Notes: generated from the letters alone by a model not told the origin. A stretch of 64,000 bases of DNA from an uncultured bacterium (GCA_963753285.1 CAVWBT010000011.1:69354-133353), one strand, 5' to 3'. Positions 16,557-56,210 are shown, numbered from the stretch's first letter. A program made the numbers and translations.

Positions 16557-16563
16557 GCTCGGT

Positions 16564-23256: not shown

Positions 23257-23444
23257 GGGGATCCTCGATCGAGACTGGCGGCGACGATAGCGCCCGGTGT
23301 TCCGGATGGCGGAACGAATCCACATGTCGGAACGCAGATTGTGGGCACTCTCCGTGAGATATTGACCACGGACAGTGACTAGTCCCACCACGCACAGTGA
23401 GATTGGTGCTGGGTAGCGGTGCCCATCAAGCTGATAGTGATGGC

Positions 23445-23993
23445 ATGAACCTCAGGCACCCATCCCGCGACTCAGAACGAGGAGCATCGCTCGTCGAGTT
23501 CTCGCTCGTGTTGCCGATCCTGCTCGTGATCGTCTTCGGCATCCTCGAGATGGGGATGGCGTTCGGCACCAAGATCACCGTGGGCTCGGCTGCCCAAGAG
23601 GGAGCCAGGGTCGCCTCGTTCAAGGGCAACGACCTCGACGCCGACTGCGTGGCGCTCGAATCGACGATCGCCGAACTCGGCAACGAGGTGGACCAGGTGA
23701 CCATGATCAGGATCTACCGGGTGGACAGCGCCGGGAACCGCGAGCCGCTCAATACCAACACCTACACATACGGTGGCGTCGGCGACATCAACGACTGCAC
23801 CAAGTGGAACGGGACCGTGCTCTGGCCGTCGACCGATCGCAAGGTGACGGTCGGGACCACACCGCTCGACGTCCTCGGGGTGGAGGTCGCCAGCACCCAC
23901 CAGTGGGTCACCCAGTTCCCACCATTCACCGGAGTCATCGACGTCGCCGAGTCGACGATCGTCCGGCTCGAACCGGAGGCCTACGACACATGA
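23445..23993 (+). CDS. TadE-like (Flp pilus assembly) protein
   Basis: N-terminal ERGASLVEFSLVLPILLVIVFGILE TadE/TadG signature. Confidence 0.7.
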   Translation: MNLRHPSRDSERGASLVEFSLVLPILLVIVFGILEMGMAFGTKITVGSAAQEGARVASFKGNDLDADCVALESTIAELGNEVDQVTMIRIYRVDSAGNREPLNTNTYTYGGVGDINDCTKWNGTVLWPSTDRKVTVGTTPLDVLGVEVASTHQWVTQFPPFTGVIDVAESTIVRLEPEAYDT

Positions 23994-24049
23994 GAGTCAT
24001 CCGGCGAATCAGAACCGCAACACGACCAGAAGGAAGGAGGCACCAAACG

Positions 24050-25522
24050 ATGAAACAGAGCAACACCAACACCACGGAACGAGGAGCGGCCCTCCCGTTC
24101 GTATCGATCGCGCTCGTGCTGCTGCTCGGTGCCGCCGCTTTCGCCGTCGACCTCGGATGGGTGTATCTCAACGGCAACCGGGTCCAGAAGGCCGCCGACG
24201 CCGCGGCCTTGGCAGGAGTCGTCCACATCACCAACTCGATGGCCGACGCCCAGACCGATGCCGAACTCGCCGCCAGCCTCAACGGGTTCCCGGTCGGCGG
24301 TGGGACCGTGATGGCGCTGGCTCCCACGACCGATAGCGACCTCGAGGTGGAACTCACCGCCGAGGTCGAGACCTTCTTCCTCAACGTGTTCGGCTTCGAC
24401 GACATCAACGTGTCGAAGACGTCCACCGCCCGCTTCGTCAGTGCCGTCAAGATCGGCAACCCCGGCCAATGCTTCGGGGTCGGTGCGGCGGCCGTCAGTG
24501 CCGCAAACAGCCCGTGCGCCAACACCTCGAACATCTGGGCCGCCATCTCTGGCAAGGACGCCGCCAAGCTCAACGGCGATCCGTACTCCACCAAGTGCAT
24601 CCAGTACTCGCCCGGCTGCATGTCGACCAACCCGAACCCCGAGGAGCACAACAACGGCTACAACTACGGCATCGAGGTGGTCTCGGGCACCAACAACCTG
24701 ATGATCCACCTCTACGACGCCGGGTTCTACCAGCGGCCCAACTTCAGCACCGAGACCGGTGACGGGATCGCCTACGGCGACAAGAACAACAACGGCCCGA
24801 TCACCAACTTCACGCTCTATAAGCCCGACTCGACGCCGGCCAACCCCAACGACAACACCGTCGTCCAGCCGGGTTGCTCGCTGACGCTCAACCCTGGCAA
24901 CCAGGAGGCGACCTACAAGAACAAGTGGGTGGTCTACTGCACGGTCTCAGGGCCGGTCGATCCGGGCGTGTGGGTGTTGAACGTCGAGCCGCAGGGCAAC
25001 TTCGGTGGATCCAACCAGTACGCCGTTGCAGCCACGGCCGCGTCCGGTCCGCAGCCCAGCCTCTTCGGGATCGACAACATCTCGATCTTCACGAACCAGG
25101 TCTCGTCGATCGCCAACCTGAGCCTGGCCGAGATCGAAGAGATCCACGCCGGCAAGAAGCTGATCCTCCGGTTCTTCGACGCCGGTGAAGACAACTCCTC
25201 CGACGCCTACATGGCGGTGAAGATGCCAGACGGCTCGACCGCCGACTGCACCTGGGTGGCCACCGATGAGGGCACCGTGACCTACTCGCAGGCGAGCAGC
25301 GCACCCTGCAAGATCGACACCACCAAGCCGAAGTCCGGCGGGGGCTACGAGTCGAAGTTCAACGGCCAGTGGATCACCGCCACCATCCAGATCCCCGACA
25401 CCTACACCTGCGGCAGCGACTGCTGGTGGGAGATGGAGATCAAGCTCAACCAGCCACACGACCGCACCACCTGGGAGGTCGAAGTCATCGGCAACCCGGT
25501 CCGACTCGTGGAGAACAACTGA
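24050..25522 (+). CDS. large TadG-like/pilus-associated secreted protein (Tad_N N-terminal domain, Asn/Gly/Thr-rich, multiple Cys pairs)
   Basis: ERGAALPFVSIALVLLLGAAAFAVDLGWVYLNGNRVQKAADAAALAG matches the TadG N-terminal domain. ATG at 24050 with a GGAAGGAGG RBS. Its GC content is lower than the flanking genes. Confidence 0.65.
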   Translation: MKQSNTNTTERGAALPFVSIALVLLLGAAAFAVDLGWVYLNGNRVQKAADAAALAGVVHITNSMADAQTDAELAASLNGFPVGGGTVMALAPTTDSDLEVELTAEVETFFLNVFGFDDINVSKTSTARFVSAVKIGNPGQCFGVGAAAVSAANSPCANTSNIWAAISGKDAAKLNGDPYSTKCIQYSPGCMSTNPNPEEHNNGYNYGIEVVSGTNNLMIHLYDAGFYQRPNFSTETGDGIAYGDKNNNGPITNFTLYKPDSTPANPNDNTVVQPGCSLTLNPGNQEATYKNKWVVYCTVSGPVDPGVWVLNVEPQGNFGGSNQYAVAATAASGPQPSLFGIDNISIFTNQVSSIANLSLAEIEEIHAGKKLILRFFDAGEDNSSDAYMAVKMPDGSTADCTWVATDEGTVTYSQASSAPCKIDTTKPKSGGGYESKFNGQWITATIQIPDTYTCGSDCWWEMEIKLNQPHDRTTWEVEVIGNPVRLVENN

Positions 25523-26061
25523 TGGCACGAGGGAAGCATGACAGTGGGGACGAGCGAGGGCTGGCAACGGTCGAGCTCGGGCTCATGCTCGGATTCCTGA
25601 TGCTGCTGGCCCTCGGCGCCTTCGAATACGGCATGCTGTTCTCCAAGTCACAGGACGTCGCATCCGCCTCCCGTGAGGGAGCGCGGACTGCAGCCTCGGC
25701 CGGTAGCGAGACCACCGCCGACTGTCTCATCCTCGAAGCGGCCTCGGGAACCCTGTTCGGAACAACCGGCGGCACCGTTTCGGAGATCGTGATCGAGAAG
25801 GGCAATGCCGGCAACAATCCACCCCGCCAGCGGTATCGCCCGGCGGTCGCCACCGACGACCCGCTGCTGCTCGCCTGCGGCTCGTGGTATCCCATCCAGA
25901 TCAGCTGGCCGCCGGTGAACCGTGACGACACCGGCGTGACTCGCGACTGGGTGACGGTCGAAGTCACCTACGAACACGAGTGGATCACCGACTTCCTGTT
26001 CTTCACGGGCACCGAGACGTTCTCGGAGGCGACGACCATGCACATGCCGCCCAACAACTGA
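25522..26061 (+). CDS. TadE-like (Flp pilus assembly) protein, second copy
   Basis: DERGLATVELGLMLGFLMLLALGAFEYG. Its start overlaps the upstream stop (TGATG). Confidence 0.7.
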   Translation: MARGKHDSGDERGLATVELGLMLGFLMLLALGAFEYGMLFSKSQDVASASREGARTAASAGSETTADCLILEAASGTLFGTTGGTVSEIVIEKGNAGNNPPRQRYRPAVATDDPLLLACGSWYPIQISWPPVNRDDTGVTRDWVTVEVTYEHEWITDFLFFTGTETFSEATTMHMPPNN

Positions 26062-26062
26062 G

Positions 26063-26458
26063 TCAGAATCGAGCCGGTCTCGGCCAGTAGCGGACGAGGA
26101 TGCGGAAGCTCCCGTTGATCGGGATCGCACCGAACACTCGAGAATCGGCCCTGGTCGAGCGGCGATTGTCGGACAGCACGAACACCTCGCCGACCGGGAT
26201 CTCGAACGAGCCTGACTCGATCTCCTCTCGAAACGGGTCGTCGTATGCCACGCCGTTCACCGTCCCCGAATCGAGGTCGATGGTCCCGGCCGTCGCAACC
26301 ACCCGCTTGATCAGCCAGAAACCTGGGCGGTCCGGATGCTCGAACGCAACGATGTCCTGCGGCGTGACCCGATCTACCCGATGTCCGACGACGTAGTCGC
26401 CGGACCTGAGCGTGGGGAGCATCGAGTCACCATCGACGACGAATCTGCGGAATCTCAT
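26063..26458 (-). CDS. sodX: S26-family peptidase, nickel-SOD maturation protease SodX-like
   Basis: Signal-peptidase catalytic motifs GDSMLPTL ... VLSDNRRSTRADSRVFGAIP. It is divergent from sodN. Start set at the ATG at 26458 (the alternative is 26506). Confidence 0.65.
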   Translation of the reverse strand: MRFRRFVVDGDSMLPTLRSGDYVVGHRVDRVTPQDIVAFEHPDRPGFWLIKRVVATAGTIDLDSGTVNGVAYDDPFREEIESGSFEIPVGEVFVLSDNRRSTRADSRVFGAIPINGSFRILVRYWPRPARF

Positions 26459-26526
26459 CACGCTCCGGTACGGGTGGCTCCGAGGCGGGAGTATGGTCGG
26501 ATACACGCAATCGATGGAGGTATCTC

Positions 26527-26943
26527 ATGGGTCTGTTCCGGCCCACGACCGTAGCCCACGCACACTGTGATCTGTACTGCGGCGTCTACGACCCCGCACA
26601 GGCGAAGATCGAAGCGATGTCCGTCTGGAAGTCGGCTCAGAAGTATCACGACTCCGACGACGAGGTGTTCAAGGCCCGCGCCATCAACATCAAGGAGCAG
26701 CAGGCGGAGTTGGTCAAGCACCACCTCTCGGTGCTGTGGACCGACTTCTTCACCGCCGACCATCGGTCCGAGTTCTCCAACCTCGACGACCTGTTCTGGC
26801 GGGCGATCCACCAGGCCGGCGTCGCCAAGAAGTCCGTCGACCCGGCCGACGGCGAGAAGTTGGTGCAGCTGATCGACGAGATCGCCGAGATCTTCTGGCA
26901 GACCGACAAGTCCAAGGGAATGGGCGTCTACCCGCCCTCCTGA
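26527..26943 (+). CDS. sodN: nickel superoxide dismutase precursor
   Basis: A 12-aa leader is followed by the Ni-hook HCDLYCGVYDP and then conserved NiSOD helices. GGAGG RBS. Confidence 0.9.
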   Translation: MGLFRPTTVAHAHCDLYCGVYDPAQAKIEAMSVWKSAQKYHDSDDEVFKARAINIKEQQAELVKHHLSVLWTDFFTADHRSEFSNLDDLFWRAIHQAGVAKKSVDPADGEKLVQLIDEIAEIFWQTDKSKGMGVYPPS

Positions 26944-33050: not shown

Positions 33051-34274
33051 GTGACGCTATCAGGGCACACGCCGACACGGTCGGGGCAGGGGAGCACGGC
33101 GCCGGACACGGATCCGATCCAGCAGCCCGTTTCGTCTCTTCCCGAGGGGTCGACCGAGTGCAGCGATGCATTCGACGCCCGTGTGGAGGAGGTCCGCAGA
33201 CTGTACGGCTCCGGCGGTGCCTATCTCTTCGGGCGGCTGGAGGATGTGATTCGGCGGCGGCTCGGCCTGGCTGCCAGGAGCGGGACGAACGCAGCACTCG
33301 GGGGACTGATGAGTGTGGGCATCAGACTGGGCCTCGCGCTGCTGGTGACGGCGCTCGTCGGGCAGTGGTCCGACATTCCGTGGGGCCGGTGGGCGGTCAT
33401 CCTCGTGTACTTCGGGTTGTTCGATGCCACACTGCCGTGGAGATTCCCGCCTCTCGACGAGCCCCTGTCGCCAAGACAACGCCGTTTCGTCGAGGACATG
33501 ACCCCGCTGCTTCCTGCGATCGTTCGAGAGCGCGACGTGCAGGATCTGGCGGACTTCGTGCGGCGTTGGAATCGGCCGTCAGTCTCCGCAGCAGCCGGTG
33601 TGCTCGTGACGGCACTCATGTTCGGAGCCGGCTGGTTGTTCACGCCTGCGGCGATGTCCGAGCTCCCAGCCGGCAGCGTGGTCCTGTTGGCTTTCCTGCT
33701 CTTCGACGTCGGGGCGGTGCTCGGAGGTCTCTTCGAGTGGGCGTTCGTAGCACGCCAGGCCCGGTACGACCATCATCTGTTCTGGCCGAGTCCATCCGAC
33801 TCGCCTGAAGTTCGGAGGGCAACACAGATGTTGAGCCTGAAGGGCACGGCGGGTTGGATCACCGGCGTTCTGGTGCTCACGTTGGTCCTGGTGTCGTGGG
33901 ACTCGGCACTGGTGCTACCCCTGTCTGGGTGGTTCATCGGGATTGGCTATCTGGTCGTGATCGGCTCGGCTCTCGGAAGTCGTGCCAGCATCCGCAAGAT
34001 CGTCGAGCGGGCCCGCCACCAGCAATTAGGAGAGCTTCGGCAATGTATCGAGCCCTTCAAGTCACGCTTCAGCGACTTGTCCACACAGGAGCTCGAGCAT
34101 CTGCGGGGGCTTCTCTTCCTCCACGACAGGATTCGTGATGCGCCTGCCAGTCCCTCCACCACCCACACCCTCTTGCGCGCCGCAGCGGGATTGATCCTCC
34201 CCACCATCGTGTTCGTGATCACCGTGCTGGGCGAGGTGACGGTCGAGCGGCTCCTCGACGCCATTCTCCCTTGA
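33051..34274 (+). CDS. 7-TM membrane protein, unknown family (paralog 1 of a tandem array)
   Basis: GTG start within the conserved leader GAGGTGACTCGTG. The conserved C-terminus is PTIVFVITVLGEVTVERLLDAILP. Confidence 0.7.
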   Translation: MTLSGHTPTRSGQGSTAPDTDPIQQPVSSLPEGSTECSDAFDARVEEVRRLYGSGGAYLFGRLEDVIRRRLGLAARSGTNAALGGLMSVGIRLGLALLVTALVGQWSDIPWGRWAVILVYFGLFDATLPWRFPPLDEPLSPRQRRFVEDMTPLLPAIVRERDVQDLADFVRRWNRPSVSAAAGVLVTALMFGAGWLFTPAAMSELPAGSVVLLAFLLFDVGAVLGGLFEWAFVARQARYDHHLFWPSPSDSPEVRRATQMLSLKGTAGWITGVLVLTLVLVSWDSALVLPLSGWFIGIGYLVVIGSALGSRASIRKIVERARHQQLGELRQCIEPFKSRFSDLSTQELEHLRGLLFLHDRIRDAPASPSTTHTLLRAAAGLILPTIVFVITVLGEVTVERLLDAILP

Positions 34275-34455
34275 GCCGGGCATCGACGGCCTGCGATGGG
34301 GTGAACATGGACCGAGAGCGTCCTACCGCATCGTGCGCTCATGCTGCGGCCGCGATTGGGCCTCATGCCTCTGGCCGGACCGAACCAGTTCGGGTACTTA
34401 ACGGGTTGGGCGCCATTCCGATGCCGGGAGCAGGTGAGTGGCGCCGAGGTGGCTC

Positions 34456-35706
34456 GTGACTGAAACACCGAAAGCGTTGACCGAGTCGGAAGTGCTGGAT
34501 CGACCTCTCTTCGATGCGGGTGTGACACCGGAGTCCGTGTTCTTCTCGGCCGGTGTCGAACCTCGACGCGATGAGTCATCGGACCGGCGGGAGCGGATCG
34601 AAGCGGGTGTGGAGGAGATCGGCAGACGATTTGCGTCCATCGACGTGTTTCTTCTTCCCGGTCTCGAGGATCGGATTCGGCGCAGACTCGGGCTGGCACC
34701 TCAAAGCGCTGGCGGAGCTGCGCTGTCGGGGCTGGTCGGTGTGGGGATCAGGCTCGGGCTCGTGTTGTTGGTCACTGCGGTGGCCGGACAGTGGACAGCG
34801 GTTGCCTGGGGTCAGTGGGTGGCCATCATCATGTGGTACGGGGTGTGGGATGCCACGCAGCCGTGGAGAACTCCGCCGGTCGACGCCTCGATCCGGCCGA
34901 GCATGAGGCGATACCTGGACAACTGGTTTGCGTTACCCACGACCATCGTCCGGGAATCAGACGTGCGAGACCTCGCCGACTTCACCGGGCGCTGGGTGCG
35001 GCTGCGCGTCTCCGCGCCGGTGGGGGTTGGTGTGGCAGCCCTCATGCTGGGCACCTGCTGGCTGTTGACACCTACCGCCTTGAGCGAGCTTCCGGTCGGG
35101 AGCGTCGTCTTGCTGGCCTTTCTGCTCTACGACTTCGGGGCACTCATGGTCTTCGGGGACTTCTTCTGGTGGGGGTTCACGGCGCGCCAAGCCCGCTACG
35201 ACCACCACTTGTTCTGGCCGAGCCCCGGCGACTCGCCCGAAGTCGGAAAGGCGATGCGGATGCAGCCGCTGCTGGCCAACGCCTGGTGGATCACCGTCTA
35301 TCTGGCGCTGACCCTGGTCTTGTTGTCCTGGGACTCCCTGCTTGTCGTGCCACTGGCATTGGGTTTCATCGTGATCGGCTACCTCGTAACGATCGCTGCA
35401 GCCATCGGGAGCCGGGCCGGCGTCCGCAAGATCATCGACGGAAGCCGCCGGCAGCGCCTGGCCCGATTGCGACATCGCATCGATGCCTTCGAATCGCGTT
35501 TCGAGGACCTCTCGAGGAAAGAGTCGGCGCGACTCCGTGATCTCCTCTTCCTCCACAACGCCATCCGCGACGCTCCCACCTCATCTCCGCACGGGAGCAC
35601 ACTCGCTCGTACTGCGGCCGCCCTGATCCTTCCCACGATCATGTTCGTCGTCACGGTCTTCGGTGAGGTGTCTGCGGAGAGGTTCCTGGACGCGATCCTC
35701 CCCTGA
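34456..35706 (+). CDS. 7-TM membrane protein, unknown family (paralog 2)
   Basis: About 60% identical to paralog 1 after a divergent N-terminal region of about 60 aa. Start set at the GTG matching the conserved leader (GAGGTGGCTCGTG). The ORF track begins 18 nt earlier. Confidence 0.65.
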   Translation: MTETPKALTESEVLDRPLFDAGVTPESVFFSAGVEPRRDESSDRRERIEAGVEEIGRRFASIDVFLLPGLEDRIRRRLGLAPQSAGGAALSGLVGVGIRLGLVLLVTAVAGQWTAVAWGQWVAIIMWYGVWDATQPWRTPPVDASIRPSMRRYLDNWFALPTTIVRESDVRDLADFTGRWVRLRVSAPVGVGVAALMLGTCWLLTPTALSELPVGSVVLLAFLLYDFGALMVFGDFFWWGFTARQARYDHHLFWPSPGDSPEVGKAMRMQPLLANAWWITVYLALTLVLLSWDSLLVVPLALGFIVIGYLVTIAAAIGSRAGVRKIIDGSRRQRLARLRHRIDAFESRFEDLSRKESARLRDLLFLHNAIRDAPTSSPHGSTLARTAAALILPTIMFVVTVFGEVSAERFLDAILP

Positions 35707-35880
35707 GCCCGAAGAGGCTGAACCGATGGCCTCCATCGGTGATTGGTCCTGGTGCGGCGCTGCGAAGCAGTGCCTCCAGGCAGGAGTTCGGGTCCTCTTG
35801 CTCTAGCCGGGGCGAATCCGGGAGCCACTATTTGAGTAGCGGGAGATGTCGATTCGCACGCCGAGGTGCGGAGGTGATTC

Positions 35881-36655
35881 GTGCACGGCACGCCGGTTCC
35901 GACGGGAGCACACAACCGCCGCTCGAGCAGGGGATCGGAAAGCAGACACCGAGGGGGACCACTGGCGCCGGACGTGAGTCGCCGTTACGCACGTCGACAA
36001 GCGTTCGAAGGCTACGAACAGCAGCCCCGTGGCCGAAGCGAGAGGACGGTTCGGAGGACATCGTGGACGGAGATTCGCGATTGCTGTACGGCTCGACTCG
36101 GATTTCCTCTCGCTCTGGGAAGATGCCATCCGCCGTTGGATCGGGCTTTCTCCGGCGAGTTCGGGAGCCGCGGCGTTGGCCGTTCTCGATGCACTCAGGC
36201 ATCAGGCTGGTGTACACGGTCGATTGCCGGTTCTGGACCACCACCTTCCTGATCCTGACCTTGGTCCTGGTGTCCTGGGACTCGCCGGTGGTACTGCCGC
36301 TCGCCGTGGCCTTCGTGGTGATCGGCTACCTCACCACCATCGGCCTGACCGTCTCCAACCGTGCAAGCGTCCGGAAGATCATCGAGCGAAGCCGGGCCCA
36401 ACGGCTGACCGCGCGCTGCGGAGCGAGATCGACACGTTCGAGTCGAGCTTCGTTCGTCTTTCGCCGGAGGAGTCGGGGCATCTCCGGGATCTCATGCTCC
36501 TCCACGACAAGGTCCGGGACGCTCCGGGCGCTCCGACTCGCTCCAGCACGCTCGTGCGCACGGCTGCTGCGTTGGTCCCCCCAACCATCGCATTCGTGAT
36601 CACCGTCTTCGGTGAGGTGTCGGCCGAACGGATCCTCGAGGCGGTCCTTCCCTGA
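35881..36655 (+). pseudogene. decayed paralog 3 (internal deletion of about 190 codons plus a frameshift)
   Basis: The conserved leader and GTG are at 35881. Homologous segments are split between ORF fragments 35881..36252, 36029..36655 and 35739..36599. The conserved C-terminus AFVITVFGEVSAERILEAVLP is present. Confidence 0.55.
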
Positions 36656-36813
36656 GTTTGCAGACACCCGTCATCGGTGCATGCCTGCGGGTCGCCGGTC
36701 GCGTAGTCAGGAGATCGGGCCCTCCTCCTCTGGTGCGATCGAGACCGGTGTGTGAACGTTCGAGTTGCGGAGCGACGTCGTCGCGTTCCGCCAAAGCGGC
36801 GCAGAGGTGAGTC

Positions 36814-38074
36814 GTGATACGAACACCCCCCGCAGCGAGAGACACGCGGATCGCCGGGTCCGCGTCGGAGGTCCTTGCGGCCGCCGGAGCGGAGGTGGGT
36901 TCCCATTCGGAGCCATCGCAGCCATGGTCCGAGTTGCGGCTCGAACGCATGGAGGCGTTCGATGCCTGCGTGGAGGACATTCGCAGAACGTACTTCTCCA
37001 GCGGCATCGACTGGCTTCCCAGATTGGCAGATCGCATTCGGAGGCGGGCCGGTCTGGATGCGAGGAGTGTTGGGTCTCTGCGTTGGCGGGAATCATCCCC
37101 GCCGGTCTCAGGCTCGCCGTCATGCTGGCCGCCACCGTTCTGTCGGGGAGTGGTCAGCGAGTTCCATGGGGTCCATGGGCGGCAATCGTCGCTCTTCTCG
37201 CGCCTGAATGATGCGACGACTCCACATGGTACCGCCTCTCGACGCTCGTCGCGGACCGCGCTTGGCGGAGACTCGTCGAGGACTGGACGGCGATGGTCCC
37301 GACCATCCCCCGGGAGTCCGACCTTCGCGACCTCGCACGCCTCACGAGACGGTGGATGCGGACGTCGATGTCGGTGGCGGCCGGGGTTGCAGTAGCGAGC
37401 ATGATGTTGTTCGTCAGCTTGGTGTACGCCCCGGTTGCCCTGCGCACACTTCCGATCGGTAGCACTGTCCTGCTGTTTCTGGTGCTCTACGAGTTTGGGG
37501 TGAACGTTGTCTTCTGGGGAAACCTCTTCAACCGGGCGTTCATGGCTCGCGAAAGCAGATACGAGCATCGCTGTACTGGCCGAGTCCGGCCGACTCGCTC
37601 GAGGTTCGCAAGGTCATGCGGAAGACGAGCAGCCAGGCGTTCATCGCCGGTTGGTGGATCACGGTCTTCCTGGTCATGTCCGTCGTACTGGTCGGTTGGA
37701 GCTCTCCGCTGGTGCTGCCGCTGGCGTTGGGCTTTGTGACGATCGGCTACTTGACCACGATTGGGCTGGCGATCAGCAATCGTGCCAGCGTTCGGGTGAT
37801 CGTCGAACGGAGCCGCCAGCAGGCGATTGGGACCCTGCGGCAGCGTATCGATGTCTTCGAATCACGCCTTGTCGAGCTTGCTCCGCAGGAAGCTGAGGAG
37901 CTCGAGCGTTTGCTGTTCCTGCACGACAGGATTCGCGACGCTCCGTCATCTCCCGCCGCCACCCATGCGATCGCGAGCACCGCTGCCGGGCTGCTCCTGC
38001 CGACCATCGCCTTCATCATCACCGTGTTCGGCGAGGTGTCCGCCGAACGCCTGCTCGACGCCATCCTCCCGTGA
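36814..38074 (+). pseudogene. decayed paralog 4 (at least three frame disruptions; a 1-nt deletion is identifiable at about 37570)
   Basis: The full length is alignable to paralogs 1 and 2 but is distributed over four ORF fragments (36814.., 36765.., 37293.., 37616..). Confidence 0.55.
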
Positions 38075-38190: not shown

Positions 38191-38216
38191 TAGGGGCGAG
38201 GCGAGCCTCGCCCCTA
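38191..38216. terminator. perfect 11-bp-stem hairpin TAGGGGCGAGG-CGAG-CCTCGCCCCTA (GTAGGGGCG family) between convergent genes
   Basis: Read directly from the sequence. It lies between the paralog array and the BMC operon. No T-tract follows. Confidence 0.45.
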
Positions 38217-38489
38217 CCGATCGCTCGTCTGCACGTCGTCGACGATACCGACGACCACCGCCCGGATCGGTCCGACCTTCTTCTCCATGATCTGGCGTGC
38301 GCCGGTGCCCTCGTCGAGGATCAGCACGGTTTCGCCGGGCCCGGCCCCGACGACATCGACCGCGATCACGTAGCCGCCGCTCGGCTCACCATCGGGGGAG
38401 AGATAGTCGCAGAACAGCAGCCGTTGGCCGTCGAAGGTGGGCTCGTTGATCGTCGAGACGACCGTGCCTGCGACCCGGGCGAGCTTCAT
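38214..38489 (-). CDS. BMC vertex protein (BMC-P, EutN/CcmL/PduN family), copy 1
   Basis: [21 protein letters not shown]...VDVVGAGPGETVL. Confidence 0.8.
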   Translation of the reverse strand: MKLARVAGTVVSTINEPTFDGQRLLFCDYLSPDGEPSGGYVIAVDVVGAGPGETVLILDEGTGARQIMEKKVGPIRAVVVGIVDDVQTSDR

Positions 38490-38782
38490 CGCTTCCGCCG
38501 TTTCTTCGGCAGGGGAGAGACGTCGACCTGATCGACGATGCCGACGATGGCGTGATCCACCGGTACGAACGGCTCGGGCATCGCCTGGGCGGCTTCCCGC
38601 GAAGCTACGAAGTAGACGAGTTCGCCCGGGCCCGCCATGGCGACGCCGTCGGCGGCGATCACCGGTCTCCCGGTCGGCTCCTGATCGCGGGTGAGTGGCT
38701 GGACGATCAGGAACCTCACCCCCTCGAGGTCGGGGGTCTTTTCCGATGCGACCACCGTGCCAATGACCTCGCCGAGTTGCAC
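38486..38782 (-). CDS. BMC vertex protein (BMC-P), copy 2
   Basis: (V)QLGEVIGTVVASEKTPDLEG...ADGVAMAGPGELV. GTG start inferred. Confidence 0.65.
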   Translation of the reverse strand: MQLGEVIGTVVASEKTPDLEGVRFLIVQPLTRDQEPTGRPVIAADGVAMAGPGELVYFVASREAAQAMPEPFVPVDHAIVGIVDQVDVSPLPKKRRKR

Positions 38783-38784
38783 GA

Positions 38785-39366
38785 TCAGCGCTCGATCCGG
38801 GAGGCGAACCGGCCATCGCCGCCGATGTTGACTGCCATCTCGTCGTGCAACCGGGGAATCACTCGCCGGCCGATCAGTCCGCCTTCGACCTGCGCAGATC
38901 CGTGTTCCACCGCGGCGTCGATTTCGGTCAACGTCCCGGAGAAGAGCACGTAGCCCTTTCCGCCGAGATCGTCGGCCAGATAGATCTTGAGCATGTCGAC
39001 CTCGGCGCCCTTCAGGCCGGCGTCGGCGGCGCGGATCACGTCTGCAACCGTCTCGGTCTCGATGATCCCGAGTGACTCGCCATGACGGGACACCTCGGCA
39101 CCGCCAAGTCCTCCGACGAGTGCGGGGTGTGGGTCGGGAAGAAACATCGCAGACTGCAGGTGCTCGCCGTTCCTCAGCTCGGCGGCAGCCAGCGCCTCCT
39201 CGACGTCGCCCACCGATCCCGACACCAGCACCAGGTACTTGCCGGGATGCACGGTTCCGGCGTGGATCACCTGGAGCGGTGCACGCTTGACCATGTCGTC
39301 GCCGGACTCGATCCCGGCGGCGATCGAGTCGTATTCGAAGAGGGCGATGGCGGTGCCGAGCTCCAT
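38785..39366 (-). CDS. BMC-T shell protein with tandem BMC domains (PduT-like)
   Basis: Two BMC-domain halves (IALFEYDSIAAGIESGDDMVKRA / LGIIETETVADVIRAADAGLKGAEV). Confidence 0.75.
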   Translation of the reverse strand: MELGTAIALFEYDSIAAGIESGDDMVKRAPLQVIHAGTVHPGKYLVLVSGSVGDVEEALAAAELRNGEHLQSAMFLPDPHPALVGGLGGAEVSRHGESLGIIETETVADVIRAADAGLKGAEVDMLKIYLADDLGGKGYVLFSGTLTEIDAAVEHGSAQVEGGLIGRRVIPRLHDEMAVNIGGDGRFASRIER

Positions 39367-40823
39367 CAGACGATCCGGAGGGCGCCGACGACACTGACGC
39401 GGCGGGGCCGTGAGAAGGTTCGCGGGCGGGTGAGTCCGTCGCCGGTCGGGCTGGCGATCGAGAACGACGAGTATCCCTCGCCTCCCTGGCCGAGGCCGGC
39501 GAAGAAGGAGCCGTTCGCCACGAAGATCGAGCAGTTCATCGCCCGAGCCATCTTCGTGATCGTCTCGACGTTCGTGGAGTGGATCCCTGCGGTGTGCCGG
39601 AAGCCGTGCTCGGCGCGGACGGCCAGATCGATCGCAGCGTCGACATTGGCGACCCTCGTGACCGGGAAGACCGGCATCATCTGCTCGGTCCACACCAGGT
39701 TGTGCTCGTTGGGGACCTCGGCGACGAGCAGCCGGATGGGCTGCTCCGCCTGGACACCGATCTGGCTGAGGATCACGTCGGCGTTCTTGCCGATCCACTC
39801 GGTGTTGATGACGCCCGGCTTGTTCGGCGGGCCCATCTCGCGGAAGATCACGCGCTCGAGCCGCTTGAGCTCGTGCTGTTTGAGCACGTAGGCGCCGGCG
39901 TCCGCCATCTCCCGCACCAGCCGGTCGGCGACCGTGTCCACCACGATCGCCTCCTTCTCGTCGGTGCAGATGATGTTGTTGTCGAACGAGGCGCCGGCGA
40001 CGATCGCGCGGGCTGCTCGTTCGATGTCTGCGGTCTCGTCGACCACCACCGGTGGGTTACCCGGGCCGGCAGCCACGGCTCGCTTGTCCGTCCGCAGCGC
40101 CTCTCTCACCACTCCCGGCCCGCCGGTCACGAGCAGCACCCGGACATCGGGGTGTGCCATCAGCTCCTTGGCCGAGTCGATGGTCGGGGTCGCAACGGCC
40201 GTGATGAGATCCGGAGGGCCGCCGGCGGCGACGATCGCGCGATTGAGGAGCCTGATGTTCTCGGCGGAGACCTTCCGAGCGCCGGGGTGCACGTTGAACA
40301 CCACGGCGTTCCCACCGGAGAGGATGGCGATGGAGTTGTTGATGATCGTGGACGTCGGATTGGTCGTCGGTGTGATCGCCCCGACGATGCCGAGTGGCGC
40401 CCATTCGGTCACGGACATCCCGTCGTCGCCGGTCACGGCCTGCGGTTCGAGGTCCTCCGGCCCTGGGGTCTTTCTGGTGACCAGGAGGTTCTTCTTGATC
40501 TTGTCCTCGTACCGGCCGAGTCCCGTCTCGGTGTGGGCGAGCATCGCCAGCGATTCGGCGTGTTCCAGCATCGAGCGGCGCATCGACTCGACGATGGTCC
40601 GGCGGACGCCGAGACCCATCTCGGCGTATCTCGGCTGTGCCCGACGCGCGGCCGCAACGGCCTCGTCGATGCTGCGATAGATCCCGTCACCCAGTTCGAT
40701 GTCGGGAGCGAGTTCCTCCCTGGCTGCGAGGGTCGCGCCCGGCCGGCTGCCGGCCGGCACCTCGCCGAGCCGGTGCTTGACCCGGCCGATGATGTCCTGG
40801 ATCTCCTGATCCGAGAGACTCAT
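39366..40823 (-). CDS. CoA-acylating aldehyde dehydrogenase (EutE/PduP family)
   Basis: Translation of ALDH-superfamily acetaldehyde dehydrogenase type, including a catalytic Cys region (ICTDEK). Confidence 0.85.
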   Translation of the reverse strand: MSLSDQEIQDIIGRVKHRLGEVPAGSRPGATLAAREELAPDIELGDGIYRSIDEAVAAARRAQPRYAEMGLGVRRTIVESMRRSMLEHAESLAMLAHTETGLGRYEDKIKKNLLVTRKTPGPEDLEPQAVTGDDGMSVTEWAPLGIVGAITPTTNPTSTIINNSIAILSGGNAVVFNVHPGARKVSAENIRLLNRAIVAAGGPPDLITAVATPTIDSAKELMAHPDVRVLLVTGGPGVVREALRTDKRAVAAGPGNPPVVVDETADIERAARAIVAGASFDNNIICTDEKEAIVVDTVADRLVREMADAGAYVLKQHELKRLERVIFREMGPPNKPGVINTEWIGKNADVILSQIGVQAEQPIRLLVAEVPNEHNLVWTEQMMPVFPVTRVANVDAAIDLAVRAEHGFRHTAGIHSTNVETITKMARAMNCSIFVANGSFFAGLGQGGEGYSSFSIASPTGDGLTRPRTFSRPRRVSVVGALRIV

Positions 40824-40826
40824 CGG

Positions 40827-41114
40827 CTATTTGTGGTAACGCTCATCGCCTCCCACCTCCCAGGAGTCCACGATCGCCATGACGACGGCGTCGCATGGCC
40901 GCTCGTGGGTTGCCTCGGTCTGCCGTGCGGAACTGCCGCTGGCGTACATCACGACTTCGCCTACACCGGCGCCGACGGCGTCGATCGCCACCACATGGCC
41001 ACCCGTCGGGGAGCCGTCGACGTCGATCTGCTCGAGCAGCAGGAACTTCAGCCCGTCGAGCTTGGGCTCCTTCTTGCTGGCAACGACGGTGCCTGCCACG
41101 CGTGCGAGAAGCAT
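40827..41114 (-). CDS. BMC vertex protein (BMC-P), copy 3
   Basis: [21 protein letters not shown]...[21 protein letters not shown]. Confidence 0.8.
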
Positions 41115-41127
41115 CGGTGCCCTCCGC

Positions 41128-41418
41128 CTATTCGGTGTCTCCTCGACGGCCGAGCGGCAGGATCGCGTCGATCGACTCGTGGGGGCGTGCGATGATGTGG
41201 CTCGAGATGACCTCGCCGACTCGCTCGGCGCCACGCAGGCCGGCCTCGACGGCTGCCTTGACCGCAGCGACGTCGCCGCGGACCACGGCAGTCACGTATC
41301 CGCCGCCGGTCTCCTCATAGGACACGAGCTCGACCTTCGCCGCCTTCACCATGGCGTCGGCCGCCTCCACCATCGCCGGGAAGCTGCGTGCTTCGATCAT
41401 TCCCAGTGCATCTGCCAT
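41128..41418 (-). CDS. BMC-H hexamer shell protein (PduA/EutM family)
   Basis: [32 protein letters not shown]. Confidence 0.85.
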
Positions 41419-41457
41419 TCCGGTTCCTCCTCAGGTACCTCTCGTCGTCTGTTCCGA

Positions 41458-42084
41458 TCACTTCTGTTCTCTGCCTTCGAGGCCTTCCAGAGCGGCGACC
41501 GCAGCCCGCCACCCGACGTCGATGTCCGCCTCTTCGCCACCGAGGTAGACCCGGCCGACCGCGCCGAAGGCGCGGACCTCCAGCACGTTGATGTTGGCGG
41601 CCTTCTCCGCCTCGTTTGCGGCGAGCGCCGCATAGGCGGCCGGCCCGCACTCCATCACGTACAGGGTCTGGCCCGGGGTGATCATCTGGCCGTGCCGCAT
41701 CCGGTTGATGAGCTGGGCCTGGTGGTCGTCGATGTTTCTGACGATCTGGCTGGACAGGATCTCCGGCTTCAGTCGGTCGGATTCTTTCATGCCGATGGCG
41801 TCGAGGATGGCGGTGCCCGCCCCGCGCGTCTCCGCCTGTTCGGGGGAGTGGACCTCGAGCAGTCCGAACACACGCTCGACGATCTGCATGCCGGGCTTGA
41901 CCTTGTTCGACTTGAGAGCGATGTCGGTCAGACGGTTGATCTCGATGCCCGGCGAGATCTCGACGAACAGCGCCGATTCGTGGGCGAGGGGGAGGAAGCC
42001 GGACGCAGTGGTGCCGATGAACGCCGCGTATTGGGGTTGCAGGCTGTCGAGGAACGCAAACGACCGCAGCTCAATATTGCTCAT
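41458..42084 (-). CDS. BMC-T shell protein with tandem circularly permuted BMC domains (EutL/PduB-like)
   Basis: About 208 aa with two permuted BMC-like halves. ATG at 42084 with a GGAGG RBS. Confidence 0.6.
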
Positions 42085-42919
42085 TCGACACGCCTCCTGT
42101 GACGATTGCGATGCCCGCCGACGCACCGATCCTGGTTGCTCCGGCGGCGATCATCTCCTCGGCATCTTCGCGGCTCCGAACGCCGCCCGATGCCTTGATG
42201 CCCATCTTGGGACCCACCGTCTCTCGCATCAGCAGGACGTCGGCGACGGTGGCGCCGCCGCCGGCGAAGCCGGTCGACGTCTTGACGAAGTCGGCCTTGG
42301 CGAGCTTGGCGAGGTGTGAGGCCATGACCTTCTCCTCGTCGGTGAGCAGTGAGGTCTCGATGATGACCTTGTTGAGGGCGCCCGACTCGTGGCAGGCGTC
42401 GGAGACCTTTGCGATGTCGGTCTGGACGACGTCGTGTTGCCCGGACTTGAGTGCGCCGATGTTGATCACCATGTCGATCTCCCGGGCGCCGTCCCGCAGG
42501 ACACGACGAGCCTCCATGGCCTTGATCTCCGGCAGGGTGGCGCCGAACGGGAATCCGACGACCGAGGCCACCCGGACCTCGGTGCCTCGCAGGTTCTTTG
42601 CGGCTCGCTTGACCCAGGCGGGATTGACGCACACCGAGGCGAACCCGTACTCCTTCGCCTCGGCACAGAGCACGTCGATGTCCTCTGCGGTGGTGTCCGG
42701 CTTGAGCAGGGTGTGGTCGATGTACTTGGCGAGGTCCATCGGGACCTCGGCTCCGCCTCCGCGGTAGCTCACCCGGTCTGCTCCGTTGGCGACGACGCTC
42801 CGCACCTTGTCGGGGCTGTGTGCGGCACAGGACCCGTGGCAGTCCTCGCACGGGTCGCCGCTGCTCAGGGCGGCGAGCACCTCGCGGGTGACGGCTTCGA
42901 TCAGTTCGGCCTGGTTCAT
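42071..42919 (-). CDS. deoC: deoxyribose-phosphate aldolase with an N-terminal extension of about 50 aa (putative encapsulation peptide)
   Basis: DeoC core (KPDTTAEDI..., catalytic Lys region KTSTGF). The N-terminus [20 protein letters not shown] is a predicted amphipathic helix followed by a Cys/Gly-rich linker. ATG at 42919 overlaps the rpiB stop (ATGA). Confidence 0.8.
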
Positions 42920-43485
42920 GGTCTGCTCCGGAGATGGCTTCGCTCGATCGCGGTGATCTTTGCGACCCGGTCGGCATGGCGACCGGGCGCCCAGGGTGTC
43001 GAGAGCCACGTCTCGACGATCTGTTGCGCCAGGTTGGTGCCGATCAGGCCGGCGCCGAGCGTCAGCACGTTCGCATGGTTGTGTTCTCGGGAGTTACGGG
43101 CGCTCGAGAGGTCGTAGCAGAGCGCAGCTCTGACGCCGGGAACCTTGTTGGCGACGATCGACGAGCCGATCCCGGCGCCGTCGATGATGATCCCGTAGGT
43201 TGATTCGCCCGAGGAGACCCGCTGGGCCACGGCGTGGGCAAAATCCGGGTAGTCGACCGATTCGGCGCTGTGCGTGCCGCAGTCGGTCACGTCGTAGCCC
43301 TGTTCTCGGAGGCGGAATCCGATGCGCTCCTTCAGGGGATAGCCGCCGTGGTCGCATCCGATCGCGATCGACGGCTTGTCGCCGGGGGTGGGCCGTGGCG
43401 TCGGTGTCGTTTGCATCGTCTCGGCGGTCGTCAACCCGGCGACGACCCGGCTGACCACCTGGCGGATCTCGGCTTCGGTCGGCAT
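42916..43485 (-). CDS. rpiB: ribose-5-phosphate isomerase B (RpiB/LacAB family) with an N-terminal extension (putative encapsulation peptide)
   Basis: RpiB core ([14 protein letters not shown]...). The extension is [22 protein letters not shown]. An alternative start at 43560 overlaps the stop of the upstream regulator (ATGA). Confidence 0.7.
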
Positions 43486-43556
43486 CGCCGCGGACACTAG
43501 CGCTGGCTGACGGGTGCTGCGGCTCCGACGCGAGCCGGGTGGGGCGAGCGTGCACG

Positions 43557-43952
43557 TCATGGCCGCTGCCTGGAAGAGGGGAGTGGCCGGCGATCGTGAC
43601 GACCGGAGCGGGGGCCGTGTCCGGCGGTCTCGTCCTGGGCGGGCTCCTGTCTCCGACCGATCCCGAGGAGCTGGCGGAGCGGAGCCGCGTACGGGCTGTT
43701 CTCGTCGATCTGTGCGGTCCGAGCGCGTCCCACGCGCTCCTCGACGATCAGTCCGCTGTCGGTGAGTCGATCGACTTCGCGCATCACGGTCGTGGGATCC
43801 ACCTCGAGCGCCCTGGCGAGGTCGGACAGCGTGCGTCGTTCGTCCTGGTCGAAGAACAATTCGACGAGCAGACGTCGCTGCGTGTCACTTCGAAACACCG
43901 GGAGTGGCCCTCGGTTCTGCATAATGTGCAGCATATCGTGCGTGATACGCAA
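43557..43952 (-). CDS. putative winged-helix transcriptional regulator
   Basis: HTH-like segment RTLSDLARALEVDPTTVMREVDRLTDSGLI. The family is not resolved. Confidence 0.45.
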   Translation of the reverse strand: MRITHDMLHIMQNRGPLPVFRSDTQRRLLVELFFDQDERRTLSDLARALEVDPTTVMREVDRLTDSGLIVEERVGRARTAQIDENSPYAAPLRQLLGIGRRQEPAQDETAGHGPRSGRHDRRPLPSSRQRP

Positions 43953-53874: not shown

Positions 53875-55359
53875 GTGGCTCAACTCGTAGGTGCACTCGA
53901 TCAGGGCACGACCAGTACCCGATTCATGATCTTCGACCGATCGGGAAAGATGATCTCTTCGGCGCAACAGGAGCACACCCAGATCTTCCCGCGCTCGGGT
54001 TGGGTCGAGCACGACCCCGACGAGATCACCCAGCGTATGTGGAGCGTGATATCGGCCGCTCTCGGCTCAGCGGGGGTGTCGGGAGCGGACCTCTCGGCGA
54101 TCGGCATCACGAACCAGCGTGAGACGGCCGTCGTCTGGGATCGCAAGACCGGCCATCCGGTGCACAACGCCATCGTGTGGCAGGACACCCGGACCGATCA
54201 GCTCGTCAAGGAGCTCGGTGGCGACGAGGGTATGGACCGGTTCCGTCACCAGACCGGCCTCCCGCTCGCCACGTACTTCGCCGGTCCCAAGGTTCGTTGG
54301 CTGCTCGATTCCGACCCCGAGCTCGCTGCGAGGGCGGAACGGGGAGAGCTGGCATTCGGCACCATCGATTCGTGGGTCGTCTATCAGCTGACGCGTGGGG
54401 CAGAGCACGTCACCGATGTGACGAATGCGTCGAGAACCATGCTGATGGACCTCGAGACCCTGGCGTGGTCCGAGGAACTGTGCGACGCCATCGGCGTGCC
54501 CATGTCGATGCTGCCCCGAATCGTCCCGTCGGTGGGAGTGATCGCAGATGCCACCGGGCCGTTGGCCGGTGTCCCCATCGCCGGCATTCTCGGTGACCAG
54601 CAGGCTGCCATGTTCGGTCAGACGTGTTTCGACGTCGGAGACGCCAAGAACACCTACGGAACCGGATGCTTCATGCTGTTGAACACCGGCACCGAACTGG
54701 TCCGTTCCGACAACGGTCTGCTCACGACGGTCAATTACCAGATCGAGGGCCAACCGCCGGTGTACGCACTCGAGGGCTCGATCGCAATCGCGGGCGCCCT
54801 CGTGCAATGGCTGCGTGACAACATGGCGATGTTCGAGAACTCCGAGGACATCGAAGAGCTCGCGTCTGAGGTCGAGGACAACGGCGACGTCTACTTCGTG
54901 CCGGCGTTCTCCGGCCTGTTCGCCCCATACTGGAGATCTGATGCCAGAGGCGTGATCGTCGGCCTGACCCGGTTCAACAACCGGCATCACATCGCCCGGG
55001 CGGCGCTCGAATCTACCGCATTCCAGACCCGCGAGGTGCTCGACGCGATGCGGGCGGACTCGGGCGTCGAACTCAACGAGCTGAGAGTCGACGGCGGGAT
55101 GGTTGCGAACAACCTGCTCATGCAGTTCCAGGCCGACATCCTCGACAAGCCCGTGATCCGGCCGAAGGTCTCCGAGACGACGGCGCTCGGCGCCGCCTAT
55201 GCCGCCGGGCTCGCCACCGGGGTGTGGGAGGATCTCGATGCGCTGCGCACGAACTGGGCGGAGGACCGCCGGTGGCTCCCACAGATGGGTGACGGCCGGC
55301 GCGCCGAGTTGCTCGCACGCTGGAAGCAGGCCGTCGAGCGGACCTTCGACTGGGTGTGA
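53875..55359 (+). CDS. glpK: glycerol kinase
   Basis: Full-length FGGY kinase (GAIDQGTTSSR-like start region, GTGCFML). GTG start with a GAAGGAGAG RBS. Confidence 0.9.
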
Positions 55360-56210
55360 GCCGACGCGCCGTCGTCTGCGGCGGTATCGCCTGGAACCGG
55401 ATGATCCATCTCGACCGGTTCCCCGATCCGCTCCCGGCAACCATCTTCGCCAGCCGGACCATCGATGCGGTCGGCTCCTCCGGGGCCGGGAAGGCGATGA
55501 ACTTCGCATCGCTCGGTTGGGACGTGACCTTCTGGACGCCGGTCGGTGACGACGAGGCCGGTGATAGAGCCGTCGCCGAGGTCGAGGCATGCGGTGTCGA
55601 AGTGGTGCGCTTCACCGACCCTGCCGGCACCGCCGAGCACGTCAATCTCATGGACGCGAGAGGTGAGCGGATCTCGATCTTCGCCCGCTCCGGGTCGCAT
55701 GATCTCGCCATCCCGGTCGCTGAGGTGTCCAGCCTGTTTGATGGGGCAGACGTCATCTCGATCACCCAGTACGACTACTGCCGTCCGCTGCTCGATCCGG
55801 CGAGAGGGACCGGCATTCCGGTGCTCATCGACATCCACGACTACGACGGCGCCAACCCGTACCACAGGGAGTTCTACGAGGCCGCCGACTGGCTGTTCCT
55901 GAGCAGCGTCGCCCTACCGACATGGAAGGACTTCGCACTGGATCGGCACCGGGCAGGTTCCGGCATCGTCGTCACCACTCACGGAGCCGATGGTGCCACC
56001 GCGTTGATCGACGGGCAGTTCCACTCCAGCCCGGCGCCGCACGTCGACGGAGTGATCGATACGAACGGCGCCGGTGACGCATTCGCTTGTGGATTCGTCG
56101 ATGGCTGGTTGGGCTCGGGCGATCCGGGGCGGGCGCTCGATGCGGCTGCAGCGCAGGCCGGCAAGGCGATCGCATCACCGGGCCTCGCCCCATCTGATCG
56201 ACCCACCTGA
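55356..56210 (+). CDS. PfkB-family carbohydrate kinase (ribokinase-like)
   Basis: [13 protein letters not shown]-terminal motif. The GTG start overlaps the glpK stop. Confidence 0.75.

Follow-up and report, generated by a model that had tools for sequence, protein, structure and literature searches.

A probable SPU3-type bacterial microcompartment operon for deoxyribose-5-phosphate breakdown in an uncultured member of the Acidimicrobiia

The subject of this analysis is a compact gene cluster in a 64-kb stretch of DNA (64,000 nucleotides, referred to here as the window) from an uncultured bacterium (GCA_963753285.1, CAVWBT010000011.1:69354-133353), in which ten consecutive open reading frames (ORFs) occupy 5.7 kb of the minus strand, from 38214 to 43952; all gene coordinates are positions in the window. 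A first-pass annotation had described this cluster as a single bacterial microcompartment (BMC) operon carrying three BMC-P, two BMC-T, and one BMC-H shell genes together with deoC, rpiB, and a gene for a CoA-acylating aldehyde dehydrogenase (AldDH, gene ald), and we recovered all ten ORFs and their families at these positions. Curated Pfam cut-offs are passed by nine of the ten operon proteins, the exception being the first BMC-T (BMC-Tdp). The genes are transcribed in the order regulator, rpiB, the gene for deoxyribose-phosphate aldolase (DERA), BMC-Tdp, BMC-H, BMC-P1, ald, BMC-Ts, BMC-P2, and BMC-P3, and they and the features within them are as follows.

43557-43952, minus strand: small winged helix-turn-helix (wHTH) regulator, 131 aa from a TTG start (Pfam HTH_20, MarR_2)
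42916-43485, minus strand: RpiB-like protein, 189 aa (PF02502)
42071-42919, minus strand: DERA/DeoC, the signature enzyme, 282 aa with an N-terminal extension of ~60 residues (TIGR00126, PF01791)
42866-42913, minus strand: DERA residues 3-18, amphipathic helix resembling an encapsulation peptide (AlphaFold2 helix, hydrophobic moment)
42818-42850, minus strand: DERA residues 24-34, Cys cluster C24-x2-C27-x3-C31-x2-H34 (alignment of homologues)
41458-42084, minus strand: BMC-Tdp, 208 aa, predicted CcmP/CsoS1D-like double-stacking pseudohexamer (match to 4HT5)
41128-41418, minus strand: BMC-H, 96 aa, the sole hexamer gene (PF00936)
40827-41114, minus strand: BMC-P1, 95 aa, pentamer gene set apart from P2 and P3 (PF03319)
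39366-40823, minus strand: CoA-acylating aldehyde dehydrogenase, 485 aa (NF011927)
40767-40808, minus strand: AldDH residues 6-19, N-terminal amphipathic helix (hydrophobic moment 0.59)
38785-39366, minus strand: BMC-Ts, 193 aa, PduT-like tandem-domain trimer (PF00936 twice)
38486-38782, minus strand: BMC-P2, 98 aa, GTG start (PF03319; start from the DNA)
38489-38509, minus strand: basic tail of BMC-P2, PKKRRKR (sequence)
38214-38489, minus strand: BMC-P3, 91 aa, with an ATGA overlap with P2 (PF03319)
38191-38216, minus strand: G+C-rich hairpin starting in the BMC-P3 stop codon (folding)

Each of the ten ORFs is a real gene under purifying selection, since in every one of them the third codon position differs far more often from the orthologous loci L001 and L006 (36-59%) than the second (0-27%). 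Junctions from rpiB onward are short: a 4-nt ATGA overlap joins rpiB to deoC and a 14-nt overlap joins deoC to the BMC-Tdp gene, followed by 39 nt containing GAGGAGG before BMC-H, 13 nt before BMC-P1, 3 nt before ald, a 1-nt overlap of ald with BMC-Ts, 2 nt before BMC-P2 (whose start, read from the DNA, was corrected to GTG 38782), and a second 4-nt ATGA overlap between BMC-P2 and BMC-P3. A similar ATGA coupling had been claimed between the regulator and rpiB, because the longest rpiB ORF had been taken, and this part of the first-pass annotation is in error. We place the rpiB start at ATG 43485 rather than at the ATG that overlaps the regulator stop codon, leaving a gap of 71 nt, because L006 has a stop codon three codons 5' of the homologous Met and because in L001 the residues 5' of this Met are unconserved, whereas the sequence MP(T/S)E(A/S)E(I/V)R(Q/E)VV that begins with it is conserved. 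At the other end of the operon, the hairpin at 38191-38216 has an 11-bp stem and a folding energy of -26.7 kcal/mol (z=-3.2 against shuffled sequences) and is the likely end of the transcript, although it has no U-tract. A consensus terminator scan missed it for want of a T run and gave only matches that were intragenic or irrelevant to the minus strand, and a promoter scan gave no sigma-70-like promoter.

The signature enzyme scores 283 bits against the deoC model TIGR00126 (cut-off 117) and 1e-21 against PF01791. In alignment its D149, K213, and K242 correspond to D102, K167, and K201 of Escherichia coli DeoC, and all three are invariant in 20 homologues. Solved DERA structures align only from residue 61 (PDB 8QPS, 6e-85); the segment that precedes it is conserved at full length in more than 100 homologues, and the closest of these (73-98% identical, ~282 aa with the full extension) are from metagenome-assembled genomes (MAGs) of Acidimicrobiia. 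A phmmer search with the 62-residue extension against 1.8 billion representatives returned 38 matches, all of them N-termini of DERA or DERA fragments except for one spurious Cys-rich eukaryote-like repeat protein, so the extension is not a module shared with other cargo; the same search gave no link to a known metal-binding domain. The RpiB-like protein matches PF02502 at 3e-54 and, at 165 bits, lies above the curated cut-off of the rpiB equivalog TIGR01120. Over 145 residues it is 48% identical to E. coli RpiB, with catalytic Cys66 replaced by Asp102 and His99 retained as His135, and Asp and His occupy these positions in all 76 of the BMC-linked homologues compared. The AldDH belongs to PF00171 and, scoring 623 bits on NF011927 where 403 would suffice, to the acylating enzymes of the EutE/PduP-like family. 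Among solved structures it is closest to 5JFL, a BMC-associated AldDH (2.3e-127), with the alignment beginning at residue 41. An exact-sequence search for this protein in public assemblies gave no match.

All three enzymes open with a conserved amphipathic helix (about residues 5-19; hydrophobic moment 0.50-0.59 against a protein mean of ~0.25) and continue with a poorly conserved linker. AlphaFold2 places the DERA helix at residues 3-18 (moment 0.50), where the motif LIEA(V/I)TREVL is conserved across phyla; the RpiB-like protein has a helix at ~5-19 (moment 0.52), then a Pro/Thr-rich linker, and then the RpiB fold; and AldDH orthologues share an EIQxIIxRV helix that precedes a variable linker. 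Because each enzyme begins with this combination of helix and linker, the three N-termini look like encapsulation peptides. The first-pass annotation had named plain DeoC and RpiB homologues, lacking any N-terminal extension, as evidence that would count against a microcompartment, and the two proteins carry extensions of ~60 and 39 residues. E. coli DeoC and RpiB, which are cytosolic housekeeping enzymes, share the folds of the window proteins (37% and 48% identity) and, in DeoC, identical catalytic residues, but they lack these extensions (about 60 residues in DeoC and 39 in RpiB), the E. coli RpiB has the Cys that is Asp in the window, and E. coli deoC resides in a deoCABD operon, whereas the gene in the window lies among shell genes.

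Shell genes comprise three BMC-P, one BMC-H, and two BMC-T genes of different classes, one Tdp and one Ts. When searched with PF00936 and PF03319, the check that had been suggested for them, five of the six shell ORFs score above the cut-off, and the sixth, BMC-Tdp, reaches only 20.2 bits against a PF00936 cut-off of 24.5. It was recognised through its end-to-end alignment (residues 3-207) with CcmP 4HT5 at E=2.7e-82, with 5LSR at about 3e-82 and CsoS1D behind CcmP at 1.3e-52; HO-BMC-T and the RMM protein MSM0275 are also matched. The NCBIfam CcmP model gives 2.6e-97 (324.6 bits against a cut-off of 340), and orthologues carry PF27545 CsoS1D_N. By these matches ORF 41458-42084 is unambiguously predicted to encode a double-stacking BMC-T, despite its sub-cut-off Pfam score. 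A Glu-Arg pair, E70-R71, is kept in 52 of 52 homologues, and we take these to be the pore-gating residues, as in the CsoS1D and CcmP structures.

The remaining shell proteins are more easily placed by family. BMC-H matches PF00936 at 6.4e-30 and is 96% identical in L001. The three BMC-P proteins match PF03319 at 1.2e-28 (P1), 1.1e-23 (P2), and 1.2e-24 (P3) and are mutually 39-46% identical, with P2 and P3 adjacent and P1 apart. BMC-Ts contains two PF00936 domains (1.6e-31), matches PduT 3N79 at 8e-30, and has no Cys at all, its pore motif reading HPGK in place of CPGK. CPGK is the Fe-S (iron-sulfur) motif of PduT-type proteins (bioRxiv 2025.11.08.687404). In PduT its Cys position binds a 4Fe-4S cluster. 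At the corresponding position H40 (39247-39249, minus strand), 27 homologous Ts proteins have His or Gln and never Cys; three His residues at the trimer pore might still bind something.

Loci of the sugar-phosphate-utilising (SPU) class of BMC have been known since 2014, and the catalogue of 2021 lists more than 280 of them, divided among seven subtypes; among BMC types, DERA is unique to SPU loci (PMC11585597). One subtype, SPU3, includes 31 loci from phyla that include Actinobacteria and is described as having an enzyme set restricted to AldDH, PF01791, and PF02502, with PF02502 first, and N-terminal peptides on AldDH and DERA; its shell consists of one BMC-H, a BMC-P triplet, a CcmP-like Tdp, and a Ts that lacks the pore Cys and is not accompanied by PduS (Sutter et al. 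2021, Nat Commun, Supplementary Data 2). Actinobacteria bacterium RBG_16_68_12 is catalogued there as SPU3, with a CcmP-like Tdp of 210 aa, and no name of the form 'Acidimicrobi*' occurs in the 2021 catalogue supplements that we searched. The window has the AldDH/DERA/RPI enzyme set (RPI being the ribose-5-phosphate isomerase homologue, that is, the RpiB-like protein), with rpiB ahead of dera, an N-terminal AldDH peptide, one BMC-H, a BMC-P triplet, a CcmP-like Tdp, and a Cys-less Ts without PduS. Because the genes present, the complement of shell proteins, and the order of the genes all agree with what has been published for SPU3, we assign the locus to the SPU class, as the first-pass annotation had, and within it to subtype SPU3, as what appears to be an ordinary member of a catalogued and partly characterised class. 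It differs from SPU3 loci in having separate genes for RpiB and DERA, which are fused in 12-20 SPU3 loci, and in its ARPH rather than PRPH motif in BMC-H, its upstream wHTH gene, and its basic BMC-P2 tail.

Gene order was compared across 82 loci, 80 of them retrieved with the DERA alignment and the other two being L001 and L002. The window order, rpiB-dera-Tdp-H-P1-ald-Ts-P2-P3, is identical in 24 of the 82, among them loci from Acidimicrobiia, Chloroflexota, and a Planctomycetota MAG. Anaerolineae show a second, distinct order, dera-P1-ald-H-Tdp-P2-P3, with no Ts and with an AldDH of only 30-37% identity, and this arrangement corresponds to SPU6. In vitro characterisation of SPU enzymes is limited to those of the SPU6 locus of Chloroflexi bacterium GWB2_54_36 (Dwyer, Sutter & Kerfeld 2024, Commun Biol, PMC11585597). 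In that study DERA and RPI were purified, DERA was active on deoxyribose-5-phosphate (dR5P), its N-terminal extension caused insolubility, and RPI, in which Cys66 is replaced by Asp as in all SPU RPIs, had negligible isomerase activity on ribose-5-phosphate (R5P) and formed a stable complex with DERA. The SPU6 locus resembles the window in its RPI-DERA-AldDH core, its DERA extension of ~60-70 residues and Asp/Lys/Lys triad, its RPI with the Cys66-to-Asp change and an N-terminal peptide, its three BMC-P, one BMC-H, and one BMC-Tdp, and its lack of a phosphotransacylase (PTAC) and PduS. It differs in gene order, in having no BMC-Ts, in its GntR/UTRA regulator, in the Cx3Cx4Cx3C spacing of its DERA cluster, in an AldDH of the EUT3-like branch (30-37% identical to that of the window) with a C-terminal peptide, and in a Tdp that is ~50% identical and of the 'blue' rather than the CcmP-like clade; further, SPU6 is confined to Chloroflexi. 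The Ts and the N-terminal AldDH peptide thus separate the window from SPU6. SPU-like shells of the 'archaeal microcompartments' of Hodarchaeales have also been reconstituted (bioRxiv 2025.11.08.687404), and these archaeal loci share with the window a DERA and AldDH core, a BMC-P triplet, and a positive extension on the second pentamer protein, but they combine PduS/MNdh and a Ts of the CPGK type, encode a PTAC or a citrate synthase, and have DERA fused to a flavoprotein. The first-pass statement that the class is experimentally uncharacterised is thus outdated by the in vitro work of 2024 on SPU6 DERA and RPI and by the Hodarchaeales shells of 2025, and in the literature that we searched there is no in vivo study of a native bacterial SPU organelle.

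The first-pass annotation had also reported that the operon has neither a PduL-like PTAC nor an alcohol dehydrogenase (ADH), and we likewise found none, which is the normal state of SPU3 and not an anomaly. A Pfam search of the ~60 larger ORFs of the 64-kb window found no PTAC (PF06130), Pta (PF01515), iron-dependent ADH (PF00465), PduS, TPI, or class II aldolase, and no RuBisCO or other BMC signature enzyme. For PTAC-less subtypes it has been proposed that acetyl-CoA is exported through the Tdp pore (PMC11585597).

Our preferred reading, to which we give a probability of roughly 0.82, is that the operon is the complete main locus of a SPU3 metabolosome of an uncultured member of the Acidimicrobiia, most likely one that degrades dR5P derived from DNA. 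The mechanism that we propose draws on the protein families and on the published SPU6 work. Deoxyribose-5-phosphate released by the breakdown of (deoxy)nucleosides or DNA would enter the shell and be split by DERA into glyceraldehyde-3-phosphate, which would leave for glycolysis, and acetaldehyde, which the shell would hold until AldDH, with CoA and NAD+, converted it to acetyl-CoA and NADH. The RpiB-like protein would most likely serve as a non-isomerising partner or scaffold on DERA that helps to package the core. As PTAC, ADH, and PduS are missing from the locus, acetyl-CoA and CoA, and NADH and NAD+, would most likely pass between lumen and cytosol by way of the large gated BMC-Tdp pore, and the adjacent wHTH protein may control expression. 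The chemistry suggested in the first-pass annotation fits as far as it runs from deoxyribose-5-phosphate through acetaldehyde and glyceraldehyde-3-phosphate to acetyl-CoA. Its ribose-5-phosphate branch is unsupported, because the catalytic Cys has become Asp102 and the SPU6 RPI with the same change has negligible activity on R5P.

Several points weigh against this reading. We infer shell assembly, encapsulation, and the traffic of substrates and cofactors from sequence. AlphaFold2 models the DERA barrel confidently, whereas the extension is of low confidence (pLDDT 40-63), and BMC-H, which has the interface motif KAAK, carries ARPH at the second such motif, where PRPH is canonical. The SPU3 assignment was made by comparison with the written description of the subtype, not with BMC Caller HMMs or shell colour clades. 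The published enzyme work is on SPU6, with its divergent AldDH (30-37% identity, C-terminal peptide). Finally, no gene for dR5P supply (nucleoside phosphorylase, phosphopentomutase, or deoxyribokinase) adjoins the operon, and the sole candidate for this role is a PfkB kinase 11 kb away that falls under all curated cut-offs.

The main rival keeps the organelle and changes its substrate. On this view the RpiB-like protein, with Asp as its base, would still isomerise, at altered specificity, and supply an unusual sugar phosphate to a promiscuous DERA, or DERA would act on some other 2-deoxy or 5-deoxy sugar phosphate, and deoxyribose from DNA would not be what the compartment chiefly serves. The RpiB-like protein scores above the rpiB equivalog cut-off and keeps His135, and its universal retention beside DERA argues for selection beyond a scaffold; M. 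tuberculosis RpiB uses Glu as a base (cited in PMC11585597), activity on rare sugar phosphates was left open by Dwyer et al. (PMC11585597), and the lack of adjoining dR5P-supplying genes fits here as well. However, the SPU6 homologue with the same Cys-to-Asp change is negligibly active on R5P while its partner DERA acts on dR5P, the window DERA lies far above the deoC cut-off with its triad intact, and there is no transketolase or other enzyme that would connect an isomerase product to DERA. On balance we regard a different substrate as distinctly unlikely.

It is very improbable that the cluster is decaying or silent, with the organelle no longer made, although some genes of the window do look frameshifted (the paralogues at 35.9-38.1 kb and the split molybdopterin oxidoreductase at 19-20.6 kb) and no sigma-70-like promoter was found. 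The ten ORFs of the operon are intact, tightly coupled, and under purifying selection relative to two orthologous loci, their catalytic and presumed gating residues are conserved, and the operon order is retained in many genomes; promoter consensus scans are, moreover, uninformative in high-G+C Actinomycetota. We assign a still smaller, almost negligible probability to another BMC type that shares parts with this one, be it carboxysome-like, an actinobacterial RMM/AAUM locus, or a EUT/PDU system with its signature enzyme elsewhere. BMC-Tdp is indeed closest to carboxysomal CcmP, shares its end-to-end alignment and Glu-Arg pair with CcmP (4HT5, 5LSR) and CsoS1D (3F56), and the RMM shell proteins MSM0275 and MSM0271 are matched as well, while BMC-Ts is PduT-like. 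Yet a CcmP-like Tdp is the stated condition of SPU2 and SPU3 (PMC11585597; Sutter 2021), the context in the window is catabolic and aldehyde-processing, and the SPU-specific DERA carries its BMC-specific extension. Neither the operon nor the scanned ORFs of the window include RuBisCO, carbonic anhydrase, an aminotransferase/kinase/phospholyase set, EutBC, PduCDE, or a glycyl-radical enzyme, so that this alternative is effectively already refuted by gene content.

Beyond the assignment of the SPU3 locus itself, the DERA Cys cluster and the basic pentamer tails are two minor observations that may be new. Residues C24, C27, C31, and H34, located between the DERA helix and a conserved VRxVVxxGAxR segment, do not vary among 20 close homologues. 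A four-Cys form of the cluster is the modal one in the set of 82 loci and is found in SPU3-like, SPU6-like, and shell-less loci, with the spacing CxxCxxxCxxxC in SPU3-like Chloroflexota and Cx3Cx4Cx3C in SPU6-like loci, and the cluster is lost in Ilumatobacter-type Acidimicrobiia. A metal or Fe-S site is plausible from this pattern, yet it would be dispensable in some lineages; the main text of the 2024 SPU paper (PMC11585597) does not mention the cluster. Shell-less pairs of rpiB and dera, with the BMC-type extension and the Asp variant of RpiB, occur in Acidobacteriota MAGs (Pyrinomonadaceae, Vicinamibacterales, Terriglobia; loci L040, L043, L050, L056, L061, L063, L065, L066, L069, and L071, and further L075-L078, L080, and L083-L085), and genes for shell proteins and AldDH are absent from the 8 kb around them. 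Such pairs may represent satellite loci, or the extension may be used outside a compartment.

The basic tail of BMC-P2 is conserved in L001 and L006, and net-positive tails rich in Pro, Ala, and Arg, 14-47 residues long, are present on P2 or P3 in nine SPU3-like loci including the window (the others being L001, L002, L006, L008, L009, L015, L016, and L027, with net charges of +3 to +7). The tail in the window is short, at 7-9 residues, and is encoded by purine-rich codons that overlap with the region where ribosomes would bind for P3, so it may in part be a by-product of that overlapping site. In Hodarchaeales, the SPU-like P2 proteins are reported to have DNA-binding K/R-rich extensions, described as unknown in (bacterial) BMCs (bioRxiv 2025.11.08.687404), and these intrinsically disordered regions span 36-137 residues as compared with the 7-9 of the window tail. 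That the DERA cluster binds a metal or Fe-S centre in the lumen and that the P2/P3 tails tether nucleic acid to the shell, as the preprint claims for the Hodarchaeales compartments, is, taken together, a tentative idea that we consider unlikely. If it were true, the DERA centre could have a structural role, act as a redox sensor, or contribute to the re-oxidation of NADH where PduS, ADH, and PTAC are missing.

Upstream of rpiB, the wHTH regulator is just above the cut-off in Pfam (HTH_20 4.7e-7, MarR_2 1.5e-6), has no NCBIfam match, and may start at an internal ATG rather than at TTG. An orthologue is found only in L001, the closest locus (56% identity), and L006 has an EamA transporter gene in this place; we infer the regulator's membership of the system from its position. 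Further upstream are genes for a deazaflavin-type nitroreductase-like protein, an MFS protein, a CPBP protease, HhH-GPD, an esterase, 6-phosphogluconolactonase, Exo_endo_phos, L25, a glyoxalase, a glycerol kinase, and a PfkB kinase, and downstream of the operon are four tandem paralogues of a membrane protein without family, followed by Flavin_Reduct, EamA, MetRS, and bPH_2 genes. Synteny with L001 on either side and a uniform G+C content make the operon look ancestral in its lineage rather than recently acquired.

Among these neighbours, the PfkB-family kinase (55293-56210, plus strand, 11 kb upstream) has its best matches, all weak and sub-cut-off, to ribose-1-phosphate kinase and ribokinase, and L002 has another PfkB gene (7304-8230), divergent and ~1.3 kb upstream of its operon. 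It is conceivable that PfkB acts as a deoxyribokinase that supplies dR5P. As linked suppliers of substrate, the PfkB kinase, the Exo_endo_phos protein, and the FGGY kinase were all rejected: unrelated genes lie between each of them and the operon, PfkB falls under the curated cut-offs, and the FGGY kinase is a glycerol kinase (742 bits). The one Complex1_51K protein of the window, at 16956-18707, was considered as PduS and also rejected, since it is a fusion of the NuoE/F type, located 20 kb from the operon and next to formate-dehydrogenase-like genes.

The membrane-protein array (33051-38074, plus strand) separates the BMC operon from the Flavin_Reduct gene and has no counterpart in the syntenic locus L001. 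Its four paralogues, 40-63% identical, encode a multi-pass protein of ~410 aa with no Pfam or NCBIfam match, and each copy ends in ...ER(L/I)L(D/E)A(I/V)LP; the first two copies are intact, the third is reduced to a frameshifted C-terminal fragment, and the fourth is interrupted by two frameshifts. In the formate-dehydrogenase-like cluster (15606-20614, minus strand), the molybdopterin subunit is split over overlapping ORFs (19613-20614, 19387-19794, and 18975-19580), and a Fer2_4/Fe4S4 N-terminal part (15606-16787) lies downstream of the NuoE/F-like gene (16956-18707). The split could reflect frameshifts, selenocysteine read-through, or assembly errors, and, viewed together with the paralogues that are frameshifted, it points to indel errors of the kind typically present in MAGs assembled from long reads. 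A nickel superoxide dismutase gene (26410-26943, plus strand) and a divergent gene for its dedicated S26-type maturation peptidase (26063-26524, minus strand) adjoin Tad/Flp pilus assembly genes (23441-26061), and this pair is consistent with an aerobic actinobacterial host.

The discovery value of the locus is small, given that the class was catalogued in 2021 and its core enzymes were characterised in 2024. It is, however, a clean and compact example of SPU3, with ten genes in 5.7 kb, from the Acidimicrobiia, which are a class of Actinomycetota found widely and for the most part uncultured, and its SPU3 gene order is shared across phyla. So minimal an operon would be handy for questions that concern the class as a whole, such as by what route NAD+ and CoA are regenerated when PTAC, ADH, and PduS are all missing, what role is played by an RpiB that looks inactive, and why there are three pentamers. 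Further, the two side features described above, the Cys-bearing extension of DERA and the basic tails on pentamer proteins, could help to refine the published model of the SPU microcompartment.

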